Below, one piece after another: positions 11,329 to 32,669 of a DNA stretch of 43,880 nt. Numbering within the stretch: position 1 is the stretch's first letter; each line of letters begins with the position of its first letter. The DNA comes from a virus. Lineage: Duplodnaviria > Heunggongvirae > Uroviricota > Caudoviricetes. The notes beneath the pieces are model-generated. The model saw only the letters and a program-made list of their open reading frames with translations. It had not been told where the DNA came from and made no database searches. The DNA is taken from IMG/VR virus record IMGVR_UViG_3300045988_187204, one strand, 5' to 3'. The translations under genes and the position numbers were made by a program.

Positions 11329-12972
11329 TCACGTGAATTTATAGAACTTCTTTTTGAATTTATTGTGAAGCTCTGCGACCACGGTGGAGAAGGGTAGCTC
11401 ATCACGACAGAAGTCGTTGAGGGCTTGGTCTATCAAGATCTTGGAGCCTGTATAGAGGTAGTGCTCCAGAGGTTGCCATACCTCGGTGCCGTCTGGCTCC
11501 AGGTGGTCGATGATGCGATAGCGTAGGGAGAGGCGCTTCTTGGGCACCTCTTTGGTGACCATGTGGGTGGAGCCGTCCGGGGCGGTCTCCTCTTGCTGGA
11601 TGGTCTCCTTCTCTATCACCGAGTCATCGACCTTGTAGTCTATCACTTGAACGAGGAACTTGTTCTCGTCCTGACCCTCACGGCAGATGATGTCCTCGAT
11701 GGACTGCTGCTGTGATTTCTCCATACCGTCAAAAGGCACGCGCGCACGGCGAGCCTTGACGAGTTTACCGAATCTTTCCATACCGATTTTCTTATATAAG
11801 TTTTTAGAGTTTGCGTGGATGCCCAGACCTAGGCGAGAGGCTGCCTTGAGCTGTATCTGGCGGTCTGTGAAGCCCGCCTTGCGTAAGTTGGCGATCTGTC
11901 TGCAGAGGTCGTGCTTGAACCGCTTGCGCAACAGGGCGTGGTCGGCGTAGATGATCTGACCGCAGAAGTCGATGCCATCGCAGGTGCGGTGGATACCCCA
12001 AGACTTATTGATGGATAGGTGCCAGTCACGGGCGAGGTGCATCACGGCAAGCTCTGCCATCAGCCTGAGGAACACCTTATCCTCGTGGAGGATGTAGATG
12101 TTGTCCATGAAGCGGTAATAATGGCGAAGACCTTGGCGGCAGAAGCGCTCGAACCTATCGTTGAGCGACTTCACTCCCCCGCATAGCAGTTGAGCTTGCT
12201 GCTGAGTGCGACAGGTAACGAGCATGTCGATCACGTAGCGAGCCTGCCAGTAACGGAACTTGTCGGTGTCTTGGAGAATGTCGAAGCATCGGAGTGCCAG
12301 GTAATCGAAGCGGGCGAGGAAGAGCTGACCCAAGAGTTGGGCGAGCTTGACGCCGAGCACGATGCCTGGATTGAAGCTATCGACCACCTCGTCGATGAAG
12401 GCGAGGAGCTTGCGGTCTTTGATCTTGCGGCGATATTCACTTTTGAGAAGAGCGTGGTCTATGCTCTGAAAATAATGGTGAATATCCATGGGCAAGCAGT
12501 AGAAGGTATCTTGCTGTGGCGAGTTGAAGATGTCTCGCTTGACAAGATTATAGAAATAATGGGTGCCCTTGCCCTTGGAACCAGCCGGACTGTGGCTGTA
12601 GAGTGTCTTGCGAAGGTTATCCTCTACAGGTTGCAGGGCAGCGTGCTGGATGACGTGGTCGATAACGGGCAGCTTGTTGACTTGGCGATGTTTTGGATAG
12701 TCGATATCTTTGGCGACATAGGCTGAGGTATGCCAAGTTTGTTGGGTGTAAGCATCGAGCATGCGTCCGATGTTATGGTCTAGGTTTGCCTCGAATTTTT
12801 GGACCGCACGGCGAGACATCTTTTGTCGGGCGTAGTCATAGAATGCCCGACGAAAGTTGTCTAGTGTCTCGACCTGTGGCGATATGTTGCCAAACCTTTT
12901 CATAAGCGGTGTAATGTCTGTGTTGAACGGTGTATAAACTGTGTATAGTCTGAATCGTCTGCTTTTGTACAC
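11329..12972 (-). CDS. Reverse transcriptase of a diversity-generating retroelement
   Basis: RT-like motifs in order: YFQSIDH (motif 2-like), GIVLGVKLAQLLGQLF (motif 4 with the DGR-typical [I/L]Gxxx[S/A]Q in place of QGxxxSP), RFMDNIYIL (motif C position), GIDFCGQII (motif 7-like); TR lies 140 bp upstream. Track start at 12972 is GTG; first in-frame ATG is at 12903. Confidence 0.85.
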   Translation of the reverse strand: MYKSRRFRLYTVYTPFNTDITPLMKRFGNISPQVETLDNFRRAFYDYARQKMSRRAVQKFEANLDHNIGRMLDAYTQQTWHTSAYVAKDIDYPKHRQVNKLPVIDHVIQHAALQPVEDNLRKTLYSHSPAGSKGKGTHYFYNLVKRDIFNSPQQDTFYCLPMDIHHYFQSIDHALLKSEYRRKIKDRKLLAFIDEVVDSFNPGIVLGVKLAQLLGQLFLARFDYLALRCFDILQDTDKFRYWQARYVIDMLVTCRTQQQAQLLCGGVKSLNDRFERFCRQGLRHYYRFMDNIYILHEDKVFLRLMAELAVMHLARDWHLSINKSWGIHRTCDGIDFCGQIIYADHALLRKRFKHDLCRQIANLRKAGFTDRQIQLKAASRLGLGIHANSKNLYKKIGMERFGKLVKARRARVPFDGMEKSQQQSIEDIICREGQDENKFLVQVIDYKVDDSVIEKETIQQEETAPDGSTHMVTKEVPKKRLSLRYRIIDHLEPDGTEVWQPLEHYLYTGSKILIDQALNDFCRDELPFSTVVAELHNKFKKKFYKFT

Positions 12973-13111
12973 TTGATAACCTTCGACCGGATGACCGTGT
13001 TGTCATCATCTACCAGCTGTCTTATTAATGTGTATGTATCGCCATGGGGCGAGGATTGACCCTGTAATCTCGAAGTGGGAGCAAACGACCCACGAAGAGA
13101 TATGTCTGTAA

Positions 13112-26528: not shown

Positions 26529-26794
26529 GCCTCACCTCCTTTCGCCTCCAGTGCTATGTTGATGGTCTTGAAGAGCTTGCTCATGTGGTCGAAGTTGTTG
26601 AGCATGAGTAGCACTTTGTCGGCACCGCCGAGGTCTTCGACACAGTTGGTCACCACCTCGTCTGAGATAAGCACCTTTTTGACTTGCTCTAGGTACTCGA
26701 TGAAGTAGCTGAGCTGGTTGACATCCATCATTTCTACGAGCGCATTCCAGACCTCTGCTGTCATGTGCATATTTGTTGCGTTGTTTGTGTTCAT
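26525..26794 (-). CDS. Hypothetical small protein
   Basis: 89-aa ORF; 4-nt overlap with the upstream gene. Confidence 0.4.
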   Translation of the reverse strand: MNTNNATNMHMTAEVWNALVEMMDVNQLSYFIEYLEQVKKVLISDEVVTNCVEDLGGADKVLLMLNNFDHMSKLFKTINIALEAKGGEA

Positions 26795-27042
26795 GCTACG
26801 ACTCCTCCCATCAGATAACCACCAAAGAAAACCACTGCCATGAAGGCTGCGAAGCCTAGTGTGGCCTTGACCACCTCGCCGTAGGTCACGCTCTCGTCGC
26901 AGAGTGCGGTGAAGGTCTCGCTCTTGGTCTTGGCGAGCTTCTTGATTTCACACTTGAGGGTATTGATGCCCTCGTTGACGTTGATGCCTACAGGTCTCAC
27001 CTGCGCATCATTTAGTAAAATTGAATTCTGCATAATTGCCAT
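26791..27042 (-). CDS. Small tail-anchored membrane protein
   Basis: ORF track 26791..27081 starts at TTG; first in-frame ATG at 27042 (alternative at 27033); C-terminal hydrophobic segment LGFAAFMAVVFFGGYLMGGVV. Confidence 0.35.
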   Translation of the reverse strand: MAIMQNSILLNDAQVRPVGINVNEGINTLKCEIKKLAKTKSETFTALCDESVTYGEVVKATLGFAAFMAVVFFGGYLMGGVVA

Positions 27043-27117
27043 CTTTAACGCATATAGACCGACCTTGATGTATAAATACAATGGTGGCGGTCACATTCAC
27101 CGTTGCGTTAAAGATGG
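27039..27117. promoter_or_regulatory. Operator-like inverted repeat at the head of the small-gene cassette
   Basis: CCATCTTTAACGCA (27039-27052) and its exact reverse complement TGCGTTAAAGATGG (27104-27117), 51 bp apart; a third copy of ATCTTTAACGC at 27283-27293. Confidence 0.35.
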
Positions 27118-27420
27118 TAGCTTTCCCAGCGAAGGGCAAACGATATCTTACGGATCATGCAACCGCCATATTGAAAAGACCTTTTTCCCGCTGCCGGGAA
27201 AATGATACTTTATAGGCATAAAAAAAGCCCACGGCGTGAAGCCTAGGCGAAACAGTCGCCTTCACTGAGTAGATTACTACTATCTTTAACGCGTTGGCAA
27301 AAGTACGAAGAATAATTGGAACCGCCAAAAAAAAAGCGAGAAATTTTGAAATAAATGACTTTTTTATGTTTTAGAGCATAAAACAAAGGGGTTGAGGAAC
27401 GAAAAAGGAATGAAAAGGAA

Positions 27421-27454
27421 TAAAAAAGCCCCGGATGCTCACGCACCCGAGGCT
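27421..27454 (-). terminator. Intrinsic terminator (- strand) after the three-gene accessory operon
   Basis: Stem AGCCCCGG (27427-27434) / CCGAGGCT (27447-27454), 7 of 8 bp, then UUUUUA on the - strand. Confidence 0.4.
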
Positions 27455-27459
27455 GACAG

Positions 27460-27852
27460 TTATTTTTGGAAATAAACTTTTAAAGGGATTGAATTCTCCA
27501 CATTGCCAATTTTGAAAGAGAACTGATAGTTGCCCTCTGCAGGGAACTGGAGGTCGGAGAACTCAAAGATGAAGTTGCTGAAGAGAAACTCATCTGAAGG
27601 GTGTGGCTCAATCTTGGAATTGATGGGCTGGCCAAGAATCATCTTGCCAGTGCTCATCTCTGTAACCTCTGCCGAGAACTCTTGCTGAAGTTTGCTTTCC
27701 TCGCTGTTCATCTTAACTCTCGCTACCATGAAGAGGTTGTTCTTAGGCAGCGGTGCTTTTCTTACCACATAGTGGTCAAAAGTGCCCACGATGGTAAGTT
27801 TGCCGTCATTATCTTGTGCAAAGTCACACAATGCAAGAATATCTATGTTCAT
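27460..27852 (-). CDS. Hypothetical protein (accessory operon, gene 3)
   Basis: 130-aa ORF; 4-nt overlap with the upstream gene. Confidence 0.45.
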   Translation of the reverse strand: MNIDILALCDFAQDNDGKLTIVGTFDHYVVRKAPLPKNNLFMVARVKMNSEESKLQQEFSAEVTEMSTGKMILGQPINSKIEPHPSDEFLFSNFIFEFSDLQFPAEGNYQFSFKIGNVENSIPLKVYFQK

Positions 27853-28289
27853 TTTATATGTCCTTTAATGTTAGACTCGATAGCCGAGTGTTTGAAAAGT
27901 TTTTTATAATTGTCGAATGAATATTTGAGTTTGCTCACCGTGCGCTTGTTTGTGCTCACTAGGTTGGCTCCATGTCTGCCAGAGATGCCTTCCTTGGTAT
28001 TGAACTTCAGAGAATTTCTTTTGGAGTCAACCCAAAGCCTGATGGCATCGCCTTGTATCTTGTCACCCACATTGCCATGGACGTTGAGATCTTCTCGTAT
28101 TTTCTTGTCCTCTTCGTTGAGCTCAAGAGCTTCGGTGATTTCTACGGAACTATTTCGGTCTAGTTCGTATAATGTCATCTTTTTGCCCGTGATAGGTTCC
28201 TCTTTGAGTCCCTTCCACTCAGCCCTTCTGGCAATGACATCAGCTTTTTTGCCCTCTATGATTTCACCTTCTTTGATATATATAGCCAT
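27849..28289 (-). CDS. Hypothetical protein (accessory operon, gene 2)
   Basis: 146-aa ORF; 1-nt overlap with the upstream gene. Confidence 0.45.
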   Translation of the reverse strand: MAIYIKEGEIIEGKKADVIARRAEWKGLKEEPITGKKMTLYELDRNSSVEITEALELNEEDKKIREDLNVHGNVGDKIQGDAIRLWVDSKRNSLKFNTKEGISGRHGANLVSTNKRTVSKLKYSFDNYKKLFKHSAIESNIKGHIK

Positions 28290-28717
28290 TATTGGATACT
28301 TTTTTGCATTGATTTTTCACTGAAAGAGAATACCTCAGCCATATCATCAGGCGAGGTGATGCTCATGAGCGATGGGCTGACCTCAAGAGCCACCTCAATG
28401 TCTTCAATGGAAGCATCTTTATCTTGTTTGATGATGTACTTATCCTCATGCTCTTCAATCTCTTTATCAAACTCTTCTTCGGTAATATTGCCGTCAAGCA
28501 TTTCGCAATATAGTTTGAAGTAGTTGCGCTCACGTGTGCGGTTGTTAACGGCACGAGTCATCAACTCCTTGAGTCTGTCGGCAGTACTGATGTTGAAAAA
28601 GTTAGCCTTATTGGTAACACCAGCGAATGCAACCTTGCCAGTACCTTTGTCTTGTATAGCCACAACAGGGCTGCCATCAGTTTGGTATGTTGTATATATA
28701 GTCGTTGTATTGCTCAT
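28289..28717 (-). CDS. Hypothetical protein (accessory operon, gene 1)
   Basis: 142-aa ORF; TGCAAAGATA -7-like element at 28748-28755 just upstream. Confidence 0.45.
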   Translation of the reverse strand: MSNTTTIYTTYQTDGSPVVAIQDKGTGKVAFAGVTNKANFFNISTADRLKELMTRAVNNRTRERNYFKLYCEMLDGNITEEEFDKEIEEHEDKYIIKQDKDASIEDIEVALEVSPSLMSITSPDDMAEVFSFSEKSMQKSIQ

Positions 28718-28945
28718 AATTCACATCCTGTTTATATTAACACGGTGCAAAGATACGGCTATTTTTTGTAAATCGCAAATTTAATGATAAATTTAACAAC
28801 AAAAATTGCAATAAAGATTGGAAAATGGTATATAAAGAATGCTCGACCGCTTTTTGGCTCTTGCCAGACGCTTTCGCCGCAGGCGAAAATTTTTGGAAAA
28901 TGAGGGGGAAGGTTTTAGCCTTCCCCTTACCTTATTATATATATA

Positions 28946-29629
28946 TTATAGCTTTCCTTTGTCGTGGTAGCTGTAGAAGCCATCCTCAGCCAAGATGATA
29001 TGGTCCATCAAGAAAAGTCTCATCACCTCGCACGCCTTGGCTATCTTCTGCGTGAGCATATCGTCCGCCTTGCTCGGCTGCGTGCTGTTCGATGGGTGGT
29101 TGTGTGCCACGGCGATGATGGTTGCATTGTTGAGCACGGCTTCTTTCATTATCAGTCGAACGTCCACCGCTGTCTCGGTGATGCCTCCCTCGCTGAGCTT
29201 GGTGCACTTTATCAGCCTAAAGTTTTGGTTCATCAGCACTACCCAAAAGCCCTCTGTCTCATTGCAGCCTATCATTGGGCGAAGATAGTTGTAGAGTGCC
29301 AGGCTGCTGCCTAGGTCGGTGTTTCTCGCTACCTTTTCCATTTGGTAGCGTCTGCCTAGCTCGATGGCTGCCTGTAGGGCTATCGCCTTGCAGTCTCCAA
29401 TTCCTGGTACCACTTCCAGGTCTTCTATTCTCGCCTTGCCGATGTTGCGAAGCGAGTTGCCCATGATGTTATAAATCTGTCGTGCCTGCTCTTGGCTGTC
29501 CTTGGTACCTGCCCCTCTGTTGATTACCAAAGAAATCAAGTCAACGTTGGTAAGGGTGTCGAAACCTTGGTTATAGGCTCTGTACTGCGGTCTCTCCTCC
29601 ATACAAAGATTGTTATAATTTTGTCTCAT
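28946..29629 (-). CDS. RadC-like JAB/MPN-domain protein
   Basis: 227-aa ORF, ATG at 29629; C-terminal …TIIAVAHNHPSNSTQPSKADDMLT… carries the JAMM-like H-x-H-P-S…D signature of the RadC family. Confidence 0.75.
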   Translation of the reverse strand: MRQNYNNLCMEERPQYRAYNQGFDTLTNVDLISLVINRGAGTKDSQEQARQIYNIMGNSLRNIGKARIEDLEVVPGIGDCKAIALQAAIELGRRYQMEKVARNTDLGSSLALYNYLRPMIGCNETEGFWVVLMNQNFRLIKCTKLSEGGITETAVDVRLIMKEAVLNNATIIAVAHNHPSNSTQPSKADDMLTQKIAKACEVMRLFLMDHIILAEDGFYSYHDKGKL

Positions 29630-29644
29630 ATCTTTTGTTATTTG

Positions 29645-30169
29645 TTAGTTATACATTCTCTTTGTTCTCGCTAGGAACATCGCTCCCATCACTTGTGCGC
29701 CACATTCGGCTAGCTCGTTGGCGAACTCTCGGGCGGTCGCTCCGCTCGTCACCACGTCGTCGAAGATGATGACTTTCTTTCCGCTGAAGTACTCTCTATC
29801 GAGTGCCACTCTGTAGTCGAAGCTCTCACACACTCTGTCTGTGCTGAAGTGCTTGGCTGTGCGCTCTCCATAGATGGAAATGTGCTCGTTTCCGTTCTGT
29901 ACCTTTGCGCCTTGGCTCACCTTTTGGGCGAAGCGAGAAAAGCGCTTGGTGTACTTCTTTGAGTTGGCTGCTGGAGCGCAAACCATCACGAAGTCGCTGG
30001 CTTTGTCGCCATAGGTGTTGACGAAAGAGCTGACCACCATATCGGCAGCTGCGTCTGTCGCCCACTGCTTTCCATCCTTGAAGGCAAAGATGAAGTTTCT
30101 CACTTGCTCTGCTTGTGCTGAGCGGTCGAAACGCTTGGAGCTGTACTCGTAATAATTGAAAGTTTTCAT
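29645..30169 (-). CDS. Phosphoribosyltransferase-domain protein (ComF-like type I PRTase fold)
   Basis: 174-aa ORF, ATG at 30169; …KKVIIFDDVVTSGATAREFANEL… is a typical PRPP-binding loop. Confidence 0.65.
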   Translation of the reverse strand: MKTFNYYEYSSKRFDRSAQAEQVRNFIFAFKDGKQWATDAAADMVVSSFVNTYGDKASDFVMVCAPAANSKKYTKRFSRFAQKVSQGAKVQNGNEHISIYGERTAKHFSTDRVCESFDYRVALDREYFSGKKVIIFDDVVTSGATAREFANELAECGAQVMGAMFLARTKRMYN

Positions 30170-30437
30170 ACGCTTAAAATTTTTATTCTAGCCAGAGGGA
30201 GGAAGGAGCTTTTTTATTTGAACTCGTCTTTGCCTGCCCGTCTGAGAGTTTTTTTTATTCTGTCCGTCGGTCGTTTTTGTCGCTTTTTACGGTGCGATGC
30301 AGACGAGCGGAGAAGAGGTATGAAAGCCAAGGAATTTTGCAAAAAGTTTATGGAAAACCGTCATCTCTGATTGCGGAAGGCTGCCGAAAAGTTTTTGGAA
30401 AATAGATTTATCGGTACTTGGTGCATGCCGTCCGCCG

Positions 30438-30445
30438 TACCTTTG
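30438..30445 (+). promoter_or_regulatory. Putative + strand promoter -7 element inside the 0.9-kb ORF-free region
   Basis: GTACCTTTGCAC at 30437-30448, identical to the 12-mer in the tRNA promoter (587-598); -33 element not obvious. Confidence 0.3.
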
Positions 30446-31067
30446 CACCCGAAAAAGAGATAATGACCGATGGATAACCGATAAAGGGAAAAGCTCTCGG
30501 ACAGGAAAAGCGGGCAAAGAAAAGGCTCTGCCTTACCTTGGTGGTTAAGCCTTAGCGACGTTTGAGCGCCATCACGGTCACCACCGCTTGAAAATTCGCA
30601 AATTTTAACCCTAGCGTATGAAATGAAAGATGGAAAATTTGCGTCATCAAAAACACCATGTTTTTCAGACTTCAGGAGGAAAAACATACCTTGGAGCGAT
30701 GAAATCGCAGCATTTGGCAGGCTTCGACCCCGAGGTTGAAGATGCCAAATGTGTCGTTTTACGACAGGTTTTCCACACCCACGGATTGGAAAACCCCGAT
30801 TTTATCGTGGTTTTAGGGATTCAAAGGGAAAATAATTCCCCTTTGTCGGCGATAGCACCCCCCACCGCCCTACGCCCGAGCGCGCCTTCCGCCCCCTTGG
30901 AAAAGACGGAATATGTAAAAGACCGTTAACGTTTTTGTAGGAATGTAAAAAGCCAAAAGGCACGAAAAAAGGGAACACGCTTCGCAGCGCACTCCCCTTA
31001 TCTGCGGTCAAGCAAGAATGCCAGCCACCTAACTTATATAAGAATCGTACTATCTAAAGAAATCAAA

Positions 31068-32669
31068 CTATAGCATGGAACCCGTGGCGATGTAGCCATC
31101 AGCCTGAGGGTATTTCTCCATGCCAATCATGAGCGTGTCGTAGGCATCGGAGCCATCGGTGCGAGCCTCCAACTTATCCTCCTCGGTCTCAGCCAGCTTC
31201 TCGCCTCGCTTATCCTTCTTGCCGTTGTAGACCCCGGCCAGGCGGATGGAGATGAGCAGGTCTTCGTTGTTCTCGCTGTTGATCATCGAGCGATGCTCAG
31301 CCTTGCCGAGGAACATGCGGTTGAGCAGAAGCATCTTTTCGAGATGTCCCATCGGGTTGCCCAGATAGACCTCGTTGACATACCAGCCATGGTCGGTGAG
31401 GTAGTCGGTGATGAAGGTATGGAAGTCATCGTTCATCAGGGCGTAGTTGTTGCCCACGAAGGTGGAGTCGTAGTAGAAGTTGACCTCTTTGCACCGATGG
31501 TACTCATAGTACTGCATGAACTTGTCGAGCAGGGCTGGCAGCTTCTCCTCATACTTCACGAAGATGCTCTTGAGGCAGCGTGCCTCGCCCCGCAGGTTGT
31601 CTTGTCCGACGGCTATCCAGTTGATGAGGGCGTTGGCATCGAAGGCGATGCAGAGCGGACGGTCGGGGTCAACGTCGGCATCCATTCTGGAATCTACATG
31701 CTTGAGCTTGTCGATGTCGTAGCCCAAGCCATCGAGGTAGGCGAGGTTGGGCGCCGTGTATAGGTTGGCATCCCTGAGGTTGGAGTAGAAGCCATCGAGC
31801 GAGATGGAAGGTCGCTTGCACATGATGGAGGTCTGGAAGGTGAGGGCAGGGAGGTCTCGCTTCATCTGCTTGATGAACTCCATGCCGAGCACCTCGATGT
31901 TATAGACCGATGAGTACTCTTTATAGAAGAGTGCCTTGGAGCGCAGTTGCGCCAGGAGCTGACCAATCTCTCGGAGTCGGCGCTGGGCATAGCCTGAGAC
32001 ATGGCCCGAGGTCTTGATGCGGTTGCGTATGTCATACTCCTCTACCACGAGCGAGGCGATGGCGTCGATGAGCAGCTGGTCGCAGTCTTTCTTGTAGTTG
32101 AGGAACCAGGAGCCCTTCTTGGTCACGGGCATATCAGAGGTGATGAGCATGCCATGGTGGTAGTAGTGCTGGCCGAAGAGGTTGACGTTGCCTCGATTGG
32201 CAGGGAAGGTCTCGTCTTTGAGCTGTTCGAAGTTGATGAACTTCGCCTCGTCGATGTCGAGGTAGTCGAGCGAGAGGGAGTTGGAGGTACCCTTGCGGTC
32301 TTGCGAGATGATGGTACCGATGGAGCCGTTATAGAAAGAGATGGTGTTCTCCCAGTTGCTGGGCGGTATGACCGGGTCGGGCCATCCCAGTTTTTTGGGA
32401 GGCTTGACCCCGATGAGATAATGCTTGCCCCGGTGGAAGCCCCATCGCTCCCAGTGCTGAAGCATCGACGGTATGGTGTTGGTGAGGCATCGCTTGGTGT
32501 TGGCGGATACGAAGCCGCCGTTGCTGCCAGGCATGCGCTGCATGTTGCGCAGGTTGAAGGTGGCGTGGAGAATGCTCTTGCCGATGCCTCGACCGCCCAC
32601 GACCACGTTGTCGCGGGCGGAGATGAGGTTGACCTCCATCTGGGCTGGGTTGAGATATTGATCTATCAT
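31068..32669 (-). CDS. terL: Terminase large subunit
   Basis: 533-aa ORF, ATG at 32669; N-terminal Walker A …VVVGGRGIGKS… and Walker B-like …LDYLDIDEA…; ATGA start/stop overlap with the upstream gene. Confidence 0.75.
   Translation of the reverse strand: MIDQYLNPAQMEVNLISARDNVVVGGRGIGKSILHATFNLRNMQRMPGSNGGFVSANTKRCLTNTIPSMLQHWERWGFHRGKHYLIGVKPPKKLGWPDPVIPPSNWENTISFYNGSIGTIISQDRKGTSNSLSLDYLDIDEAKFINFEQLKDETFPANRGNVNLFGQHYYHHGMLITSDMPVTKKGSWFLNYKKDCDQLLIDAIASLVVEEYDIRNRIKTSGHVSGYAQRRLREIGQLLAQLRSKALFYKEYSSVYNIEVLGMEFIKQMKRDLPALTFQTSIMCKRPSISLDGFYSNLRDANLYTAPNLAYLDGLGYDIDKLKHVDSRMDADVDPDRPLCIAFDANALINWIAVGQDNLRGEARCLKSIFVKYEEKLPALLDKFMQYYEYHRCKEVNFYYDSTFVGNNYALMNDDFHTFITDYLTDHGWYVNEVYLGNPMGHLEKMLLLNRMFLGKAEHRSMINSENNEDLLISIRLAGVYNGKKDKRGEKLAETEEDKLEARTDGSDAYDTLMIGMEKYPQADGYIATGSML

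Follow-up and report, generated by a model that had tools for sequence, protein, structure and literature searches.

Two independent mobile cassettes, a phosphoribosyltransferase-RadC module and a conserved three-gene unit, in an insertion hot spot next to terL of a Segatella copri prophage

ComFC, DprA, RadC, and SsbB are protein types linked to competence in naturally transformable bacteria. In Shosta (ShosTA), an anti-phage toxin-antitoxin system of type IV, the toxin ShosT binds phosphoribosyl pyrophosphate (PRPP) and requires its DD motif for toxicity, and no acceptor has been found for it; its partner, the DprA-like protein ShosA, binds single-stranded DNA (ssDNA) and RecA and neutralizes ShosT without binding it (PMC11961720, PMC12961424). 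ShosT also has an N-terminal pyrophosphatase domain (PMC11961720). In phages and conjugative elements, Iyer et al. (2017) found a distinct group of phosphoribosyltransferases (PRTases) with ComFC-like features, as well as JAB domains of the RadC type, with both kinds of domain reported in polyvalent proteins. These PRTases come mainly from Proteobacteria and Verrucomicrobia and are often fused to MuF; their role is called enigmatic, and nucleotide production or sensing at DNA entry is proposed (PMC5512222). Here, we analyzed a 43,880-nt Caudoviricetes sequence (IMG/VR record IMGVR_UViG_3300045988_187204; the whole stretch is referred to as the window), in which a region next to terL encodes a stand-alone PRTase and a RadC protein (cassette A) and three small proteins, g142, g146, and a DUF6941 protein (cassette B, or the trio). 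The window, which contains an integrase gene (819-1982), a tRNA-Met gene (627-702), and genes for a tape-measure protein, a head protease, and a reverse transcriptase, is a prophage, and its host is Segatella copri (100% match).

The window was compared with 47 loci encoding the same or a related PRTase and with 52 loci encoding a g142 relative. An insertion hot spot lies between the terL terminator and the conserved genes that come next, and it holds two independent, horizontally mobile, and dispensable cassettes, neither of which is needed for the virion (Table 1). In six close relatives (L102, L109, L123, L124, L125, and L132), terL is followed directly by the trio, and PRTase and RadC are both missing. 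The breakpoints against these relatives fall at window positions 30589 (30482) and 28820 (28851), which sets the limits of cassette A and assigns to it ~420 nt of 5' non-coding DNA. Many other relatives encode PRTase and RadC and have no trio. The trio is gained or lost as a unit, with breakpoints at ~28820-28846 and 27329-27347 of the window, and its slot in relatives is taken by a HicA/HicB pair, a 158-aa membrane protein, an 85-aa helix-turn-helix (HTH)-like protein, or nearly nothing. HicA/HicB-like pairs, identified from their sequences, lie in the trio slot of three loci (L004 11472-12165, L029 7468-8156, and L033 9071-9749), and in L138 (2841-3507) such a pair lies beside a diverged trio, not in its slot. 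The presence of these pairs marks the site as a toxin-antitoxin and defense hot spot. The trio is 99-100% identical among phages whose PRTases are just 85% and whose TerL proteins are just 92% identical, indicating recent movement of the trio. The G+C content at third codon positions is 0.76-0.81 in core genes, 0.65 in the PRTase and RadC genes, and 0.46-0.55 in the trio.

A preliminary description of this DNA had treated the five genes as a single accessory block of moron-type cargo that is not needed for virion assembly. The last point holds, as both cassettes are separately missing from close relatives, and the comparison with related prophages likewise shows the trio slot to be variable cargo. 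The candidate roles it named, anti-defense or nucleic-acid processing, are still plausible. The block itself resolves into two cassettes with different histories. Both cassettes display the presence/absence pattern and the deviant composition by which morons are recognized, and both count as cargo of the moron type; PRTase-RadC, however, is not typical variable cargo, being found after terL in most phage lineages (12 of 14, see below) and having a conserved leader of its own. An assignment of PRTase-RadC to the conserved core was also considered and was dropped because relatives without the module exist. A reading in which some or all of the five proteins belong to the virion or take part in its assembly (for instance, as an internal protein that is packaged or as an immunoglobulin (Ig)-like decoration protein) would agree with the location of the block between terL and other conserved morphogenesis-region genes, and with the fusion of PRTase domains to MuF head proteins in other phages (PMC5512222). 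However, close relatives lacking each cassette keep the rest of the module, the trio occurs at differing genome positions, even beside the integrase, a promoter and terminators are present within the cassettes themselves, and no structural match was found among the PHROG families and no structural-protein homology for any of the five proteins. A structural role is thus extremely improbable, and the cassettes most likely serve conflicts with the host or with rival elements rather than the building of the virus particle.

Table 1 Features of the two cassettes and of the adjoining DNA (window positions)
Feature	Position	Strand	Details
terL-unit intrinsic terminator	30962-30999	minus	14-bp hairpin 30968-30999 followed by U6; RNA fold -22.2 kcal/mol, z = -3.05
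Hairpin-rich conserved non-coding block	30589-30965	minus	between terL terminator and cassette A; z = -3.69
Cassette A	28821-30588	minus	5' non-coding region, PRTase, RadC, terminator
Conserved A-rich leader	30181-30300	minus	directly upstream of PRTase start codon
PRTase	29645-30169	minus	174 aa
RadC	28946-29629	minus	227 aa
Hairpin terminator after RadC	28905-28926	minus	T-rich tail on both strands; terminator scan
Cassette B	~27348-28820	minus	promoter, g142-g146-DUF6941, terminator
Canonical Bacteroides-type promoter of cassette B	28748-28779	minus	TTTG-N20-TAtcTTTG; pattern search and direct reading
g142	28289-28717	minus	142 aa
g146	27849-28289	minus	146 aa
DUF6941 protein	27460-27852	minus	130 aa
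Intrinsic terminator of cassette B, strong	27427-27454	minus	12-bp stem with 8 G-C pairs, T6; terminator scan

All five open reading frames (ORFs) first proposed are present on the minus strand at their proposed positions, and the two transcription units into which they had been divided are real, with terminators after terL, RadC, and the trio and a promoter before the trio. The functional units extend past the block originally delimited, to ~30588 on one side and to 27427 on the other. The terL stop is at 31068, and the terL-unit terminator, which also appears in the fold of 30589-31067, is the upstream limit of the accessory region. The -7 element and terminator that had been ascribed to the trio were located as a Bacteroides-type promoter and the 12-bp terminator; a pattern search found just four full matches to this promoter on its strand in the whole window, including the one before the trio. 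The same search of the window detected no canonical TTTG/TAnnTTTG promoter upstream of PRTase. Cassette B therefore carries its own promoter and terminator, and cassette A carries a terminator and a leader, with no recognizable promoter. In cassette A, a 15-nt spacer separates PRTase from RadC. The genes of the trio are translationally coupled, with g142 and g146 joined at TAATG and g146 and the DUF6941 gene overlapping at ATGA. The ORF-free stretches that were said to flank the block do exist (898 and 378 nt), but they are not empty, as conserved non-coding elements lie inside them.

The PRTase is a single-domain protein with an isoelectric point (pI) of 9.2 and an intact PRPP loop (FDDVVTSGAT). 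It matches Pfam PF00156 (4.5e-7, 29.7 bits; cut-off 26.3), which together with the PRPP loop places it in the PRTase superfamily. In PADLOC it matches ShosT (PDLC03962; 1.6e-9, residues 9-171), PsyrT (9e-9), and the retron PRTase_III-A (2.4e-4), and its homologues in conjugative elements match ShosT at 6.5e-13 and 1.1e-14. The long ShosT model and the solved ShosT align to it at the PRPP loop only (E 0.04 for the solved ShosT). The comF model TIGR00201 covers residues 21-168 (1.6e-7) at 31.5 bits, against a cut-off of 233.55, and the alignment begins at model position 43, so that the zinc-finger region is outside the match. No Cys pairs are found in the first 60 residues of the PRTase, and no helicase gene is adjacent to its gene; by score, zinc finger, and ComFA, the protein does not belong to ComF/ComFC. 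It has neither a zinc finger nor a pyrophosphatase domain. In an alignment of six sequences (A1: window, L020, L029, L044, L045, and L046), F136, D137, D138, T141, and G143 are invariant, as are the family-specific residues R13, R24, F30-K31-D32-G33 (FKDG), C64, P66, K72, and R76. Based on these profile matches and motifs, we assign the PRTase to a ShosT/PsyrT/ComF-like clade.

The intact PRPP loop and weak NCBIfam and Protein Data Bank (PDB) matches to PRTases for orotate, adenine, and hypoxanthine could also suggest an auxiliary metabolic gene that supplies phage replication through purine or pyrimidine salvage, with RadC as an unrelated neighbor. The matches to metabolic PRTases, however, span only the PRPP loop (residues ~113-169), and all equivalog scores are far under their cut-offs (e.g., 23.9 vs 150). 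Full-length similarity is to ShosT, PsyrT, and ComF, the N-terminal motifs are family-specific, and the linkage to RadC or SLOG genes is consistent, all of which makes a salvage function very improbable.

The RadC protein consists of an N-terminal UPF0758/helix-hairpin-helix (HhH) region and a JAB domain in which the JAMM motif E...HxH...S..D is intact. It matches PF04002 (1.2e-35, 122.5 bits; cut-off 22.1), PF20582 (UPF0758_N; 7.2e-12, 45.7 bits; cut-off 27.1), and TIGR00608 (152.9, above the cut-off of 133.85), and scores slightly under the cut-off of NF000642 (175.5 vs 180). Residues E126, H176, H178, and S180 are invariant in an alignment (A6) of eight element-borne RadCs, seven from phages and one from a conjugative-element-like locus (L065), and the motif reads HNHPSNSTQPSKAD. 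By domain score, metal site, and N-terminal region, the protein is a member of the RadC family. It has no ShosA or DprA match in PADLOC. The PRTase and RadC labels of the preliminary description thus agree with the Pfam matches.

A degenerate-pattern scan with one genome per species retrieved 26 members of the PRTase family, all from Bacteroidales. After removal of near-duplicates, 12 lineages have the arrangement terL, a gap of ~0.8-1.5 kb, PRTase, and RadC; two have terL, the gap, and PRTase with RadC missing; four have PRTase followed by a SLOG-type gene, one of them with RadC between; and a few (L072/73, L141) have PRTase without a recognizable partner. Hence, among the 14 phage lineages in which terL lies upstream, 12 have PRTase-RadC after it, and this holds at TerL identities as low as 24-28%. 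The SLOG partners are found in L060, L062, L065, and L070. Those of L060, L065, and L070 belong to PF06908 YpsA (1e-17 to 1e-22), and that of L062 was detected by tblastn only; the ShosA model matches only the L060 protein, and weakly (6.4e-3). In L065, PRTase, RadC, and SLOG genes are consecutive. The SLOG-partnered loci carry a type IV secretion system coupling protein, a Toprim primase, a Mob_Pre relaxase, and a single-stranded DNA-binding protein (SSB), as well as DUF2958, DUF1281_C, an orphan N6-methylase, and HipA, and these PRTases reside in conjugative or mobilizable elements. Against an obligate pairing of toxin and antitoxin stand the PRTases of L046/47, L067, L072/73, and L141, which have neither a RadC nor a SLOG neighbor. 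Collectively, the PRTase module is widespread and old in the mobile elements of Bacteroidales and is optional in each. The gene after PRTase(-RadC) in other phages encodes a weak ParB_N-like protein (L064 9353-9952) or a DnaQ-type exonuclease with BRCT (L067 7965-9248), so DNA-processing enzymes cluster at this position.

Cassette A shares several properties with Shosta. ShosT is the best PADLOC match of the PRTase, and both have a PRTase core with the catalytic DD motif and PRPP loop. Both are also two-gene systems with a DNA-processing partner, and in conjugative elements the PRTase homologues are followed by YpsA SLOG proteins of the DprA superfamily. In contrast, the partner in Shosta is the DprA-like ShosA, whereas in the window it is RadC (HhH + JAB), which does not qualify as ShosA. 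The solved ShosT has 424 aa with a pyrophosphatase domain, and the PRTase of the window has 174 aa without this domain. Moreover, cassette A, unlike Shosta, has a dedicated leader, and its carriers are phages and conjugative elements. In the main, though less likely, alternative to the function favored below, cassette A acts as a Shosta-like type IV toxin-antitoxin or abortive-infection system that protects the lysogen or retains the prophage. The PRTase would then be a PRPP-dependent toxin against purine metabolism and DNA replication, and RadC would replace ShosA as the DNA-bound neutralizer. Consistent with such a role are the ShosT matches of the window PRTase and of the stronger-scoring homologues that have SLOG genes next to them, the presence of YpsA/DprA-superfamily SLOG proteins, which form the partner class of ShosA and PsyrA, the consecutive PRTase, RadC, and SLOG genes of L065, the order of toxin-like gene and then partner with a 15-nt spacer, and the presence/absence hot spot with HicAB in relatives. 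The dependence of ShosT toxicity on the DD motif and PRPP binding, and the ability of ShosA to work without binding ShosT, would also allow it (PMC11961720, PMC12961424). However, several lineages have the PRTase without a RadC or SLOG neighbor, RadC is widespread alone, the same position is kept across very divergent phages, and the leader is common to establishment-type genes. In addition, a DprA-like partner is missing from the window, the PRTase lacks the pyrophosphatase domain, and no canonical lysogen-type promoter is present.

Other known systems show partial resemblance. The PRTase domains of PsyrTA/RqlHI and of type III-A retrons belong to the same clade as the window PRTase, which, unlike them, has no fusion to a RecQ-like helicase and neither a reverse transcriptase nor msr-msd beside it. 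The element clusters resemble the set of competence proteins (ComFC, DprA, RadC, and SsbB) in that a ComF-like PRTase, a DprA-superfamily SLOG, RadC, and SSB co-occur; in contrast, the PRTase has no N-terminal zinc finger, there is no ComFA helicase, and the genes lie in mobile elements and not in a competence regulon. The best-fitting description for the window is that of the solo PRTase and RadC domains of Iyer et al. (2017), from which the window PRTase differs in being stand-alone, carried by Bacteroidales phages, fixed after terL, coupled to RadC, and preceded by a conserved leader that conjugative elements share (PMC5512222); the passages of that account used here contain none of the last three features. 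Modules of the cassette A kind are thus already described in comparative genomics. What is new is that RadC takes the place that the DprA-like partner has in Shosta, that the module keeps a fixed location after terL in phages of Bacteroidales, and that its leader is shared.

The leader of ~120 nt shows 75-80% nucleotide identity across phages whose PRTases share 35-50% amino acid identity. A leader profile placed it within 150 nt upstream of the PRTase gene in 89 of 99 loci. When 2.9 million viral contigs were scanned without bias using a leader seed, the full motif was found at 54 loci; a PRTase gene lies within 400 nt downstream in all assessable cases (50/50), compared with 0/26 among the seed-only matches. 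The leader is composed of three A-tracts followed by G(C/G)TC-type blocks, with ~40-nt spacing. In conjugative-element-like loci, extra copies are located before DUF2958 genes and an orphan N6-methylase gene (L060 3830-3960; L065 2508-2638 and 11599-11734; L065/L066), suggesting a control element shared by entry-type genes. This hints that the leader links the phage module to the regulatory program of the entry-type genes of conjugative elements. We know of no description of an equivalent of the ssDNA promoters of enterobacterial plasmids for mobile elements of Bacteroidales. A paper on plasmid leading regions contains no mention of DUF2958, phosphoribosyl (PRTase), ComF, DprA, YpsA, or Bacteroid-.

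No consensus pairs were found in the leader by RNAalifold with MAFFT and profile-based alignments, on both strands and in subsets, and the leader was accordingly not called as a riboswitch or ssDNA promoter. Its single-sequence z-scores are approximately -1.7, and the small hairpins between the A-tracts shift register among lineages. A 42-aa basic ORF over the leader is out of frame in L044, and the leader was rejected as a small ORF. An Rfam scan (E-value mode) of 26700-31200 gave no match to the leader; the isrL and SQ1002 matches, both away from it, are terminator-level noise far under the gathering scores. The 5' region of cassette A also contains two 16-nt direct repeats (30342-30357 and 30387-30402; TTTTCCAWAAACTTTT on the gene strand), 45 nt apart, and the core GTTTTCCA occurs at the same place in the L050-L053 lineage. 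These repeats may be an operator.

Cassette B is an unannotated, conserved three-gene unit. The g142 protein is acidic (pI 4.6), with a variable N-terminus, a conserved AVNNRTRERNYF helix, an acidic linker, and an HTH-like C-terminus. Its family comprises 244 cluster representatives at E <= 1e-3, of which single members show weak HTH matches at the C-terminus, and the family profile has no significant match among PDB sequences. The g146 protein is basic (pI 9.4) and all-beta, with many invariant charged residues; a word search found 75 homologues, down to 50% identity, and no fold match was obtained. Neither g142 nor g146 has a match in Pfam, PHROG, NCBIfam, or PADLOC. The third protein (pI 5.0) is a beta sandwich of Ig-like type whose N-terminal motif, DFAQDN..KLTIVGTF, is invariant. 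It was initially counted among three unknown proteins, which does not strictly apply, because residues 5-126 of its 130 match PF22091 (DUF6941; 6.1e-21, 75.5 bits; cut-off 27) and it is a member of this family. DUF6941 also occurs alone in a Ferruginibacter chromosome, and a literature search found no paper mentioning the family. The three proteins contain no transmembrane segments and match 0 families of PADLOC-DB v2.0.0 at E <= 0.1.

The trio order is kept in 46 of the 52 g142-family loci, down to 33-58% identity. Elsewhere, the trio is located before ClpP and a capsid gene (L094, L135), in the interval between lysis genes and integrase (L097), beside HicAB (L138), and ~1 kb downstream of a PRTase homologue (L141), and it is confined to phages in every context retrieved. 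Cassette B resembles HicAB-type moron cargo in having a promoter and terminator, a presence/absence pattern, a G+C content below that of the backbone, and a common slot. It differs from HicAB in having three genes, two of them without family annotation, and in that g146 has no fold relative; no recognizable toxin or antitoxin domain was detected in the cassette.

We favor, at a probability of roughly 0.45, the view that cassette A serves the element carrying it in conflicts that center on DNA entry and replication, by way of nucleotide or ssDNA metabolism. This view, drawn from sequence comparison, is based on the intact catalytic motifs, the variable partner (RadC, SLOG, both, or neither), the linkage to SSB, methylase, and DUF2958 genes, the shared leader, and the retention across divergent phages. 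Cassette A would be the phage form of a PRTase-centered module that belongs to the entry or establishment genes of conjugative and mobilizable elements in Bacteroidales. With its PRPP loop, the PRTase would bind PRPP and then perturb or sense nucleotide or ssDNA metabolism in a ShosT- or ComFC-like manner. RadC may bind DNA through its HhH region, and its JAMM zinc site may process a nucleic-acid- or nucleotide-linked substrate, thereby directing or limiting the PRTase. Through the shared leader, the module would have its control in common with the other entry genes.

For cassette B, the most likely role is that of a tripartite exclusion or defense unit of toxin-antitoxin-like type, expressed in the lysogen, judging from its housekeeping promoter and terminator, the HicAB slot or neighborhood, and the coupling of acidic and basic proteins as in a toxin-antitoxin pair. 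The unit would be transcribed in the lysogen from the housekeeping-type promoter; g142 (acidic, HTH-like) would be the regulator or neutralizer, g146 (basic, all-beta) the effector, and the Ig-like DUF6941 protein an adaptor or sensor. The trio might instead be a counter-defense (anti-immunity) operon in which small acidic proteins inhibit or mimic host immune components, as g142 and the DUF6941 protein are small, acidic, and cytoplasmic, PADLOC gives no match, all retrieved contexts are phages, and the L141 trio is close to a PRTase homologue. However, a housekeeping promoter with its own terminator is typical of lysogen-expressed morons, and the L097 position between lysis genes and integrase and the HicAB slot or neighborhood also weigh against counter-defense. 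The strict three-gene order, the translational coupling, and the acidic/basic pair are more like a toxin-antitoxin or defense operon than a single-protein inhibitor. Counter-defense is thus unlikely for cassette B.

Several observations weigh against the functions favored here for the two cassettes. The nearest profile matches of the PRTase, ShosT and PsyrT, are host-defense toxins and not counter-defense proteins (PMC11961720, PMC12961424). Cassette A lies in the late/structural region of the phage without a canonical TTTG/TAnnTTTG promoter, and its leader has no supported secondary structure. The PRTase lacks the ShosT pyrophosphatase domain and the ComFC zinc finger, and it resembles the solved ShosT at the PRPP loop only. 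No domain in cassette B indicates an activity: g146 lacks fold relatives, the Ig-like fold of DUF6941 is generic, and PADLOC returned nothing.

In a more speculative and improbable scenario, the element-borne PRTase would write a phosphoribosyl mark that one of its interchangeable partners erases. As the writer, it would move ribose-5-phosphate from PRPP to a base in ssDNA or entering DNA, or to a nucleotide-like signal. The eraser would be RadC (a JAMM hydrolase with a deaminase-like fold and HhH) or the YpsA SLOG protein, which falls in the superfamily of LOG phosphoribohydrolases. Such a pair would be a PRPP-based analogue of DarT/DarG that phages and conjugative elements use at DNA entry, with the leader as its dedicated cis-regulatory element. 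If true, this would account for the missing acceptor base of ShosT.

Conserved non-coding DNA borders both cassettes. None of 100 shuffles of the hairpin-rich block (30589-30965) folds as well as the native sequence. The block is near-invariant in relatives, even in those without PRTase-RadC, and shows compensatory change in 7 pairs. It is phage backbone outside the cassettes, perhaps a packaging site or a non-coding RNA. A 99-aa plus-strand ORF (30630-30929), which is called as a gene in public assemblies, is interrupted by stops or frameshifts in L033, L039, L102, L119, L126, and L129, and is therefore probably not a gene. On the other side, a second canonical Bacteroides promoter (27298-27329, minus strand) precedes four hairpins in a 118-nt stretch (z = -3.55), at the end of which lie terminator-like stems. 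This unit (27175-27329, minus strand) is conserved in relatives, begins the backbone sequence downstream of the trio slot, and looks like a small-RNA unit.

Elsewhere in the window, an Rfam RT-17 RNA (12955-13056, minus strand; 59.9 bits, gathering score 40.4) adjoins the start of a 547-aa reverse transcriptase (11329-12972, minus strand; PHROG 1423, 1.4e-54). Together they are a retroelement in the prophage, possibly a diversity-generating one, and an RVT_1 gene is also present in relatives such as L097.

The exact 174-aa PRTase sequence was found in 6317 blocks of a public assembly index, mostly human gut metagenomes, and the prophage carrying it is very abundant. With Segatella copri as the host, this makes the cassettes some of the more common accessory genes in the human gut virome. 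In a tblastn search of 50,697 GenBank phage records, the sole matches to the PRTase were faecal metagenome contigs without annotation, and g146 had no match.

These results do not overturn current understanding. PRTase effectors recur in Shosta, PsyrTA, and retrons. A minimal 174-aa PRTase that swaps RadC and SLOG partners and moves between phages and conjugative elements is a natural experiment on the roles of the enzyme and its partners. The leader that the module has in common with an orphan methylase and DUF2958 hints at common regulation of entry genes in Bacteroidales mobile elements. The trio, with two families that have no Pfam entry, is a reasonable candidate for a new Bacteroidales exclusion or defense system. 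Both cassettes are good experimental leads in an abundant gut prophage.

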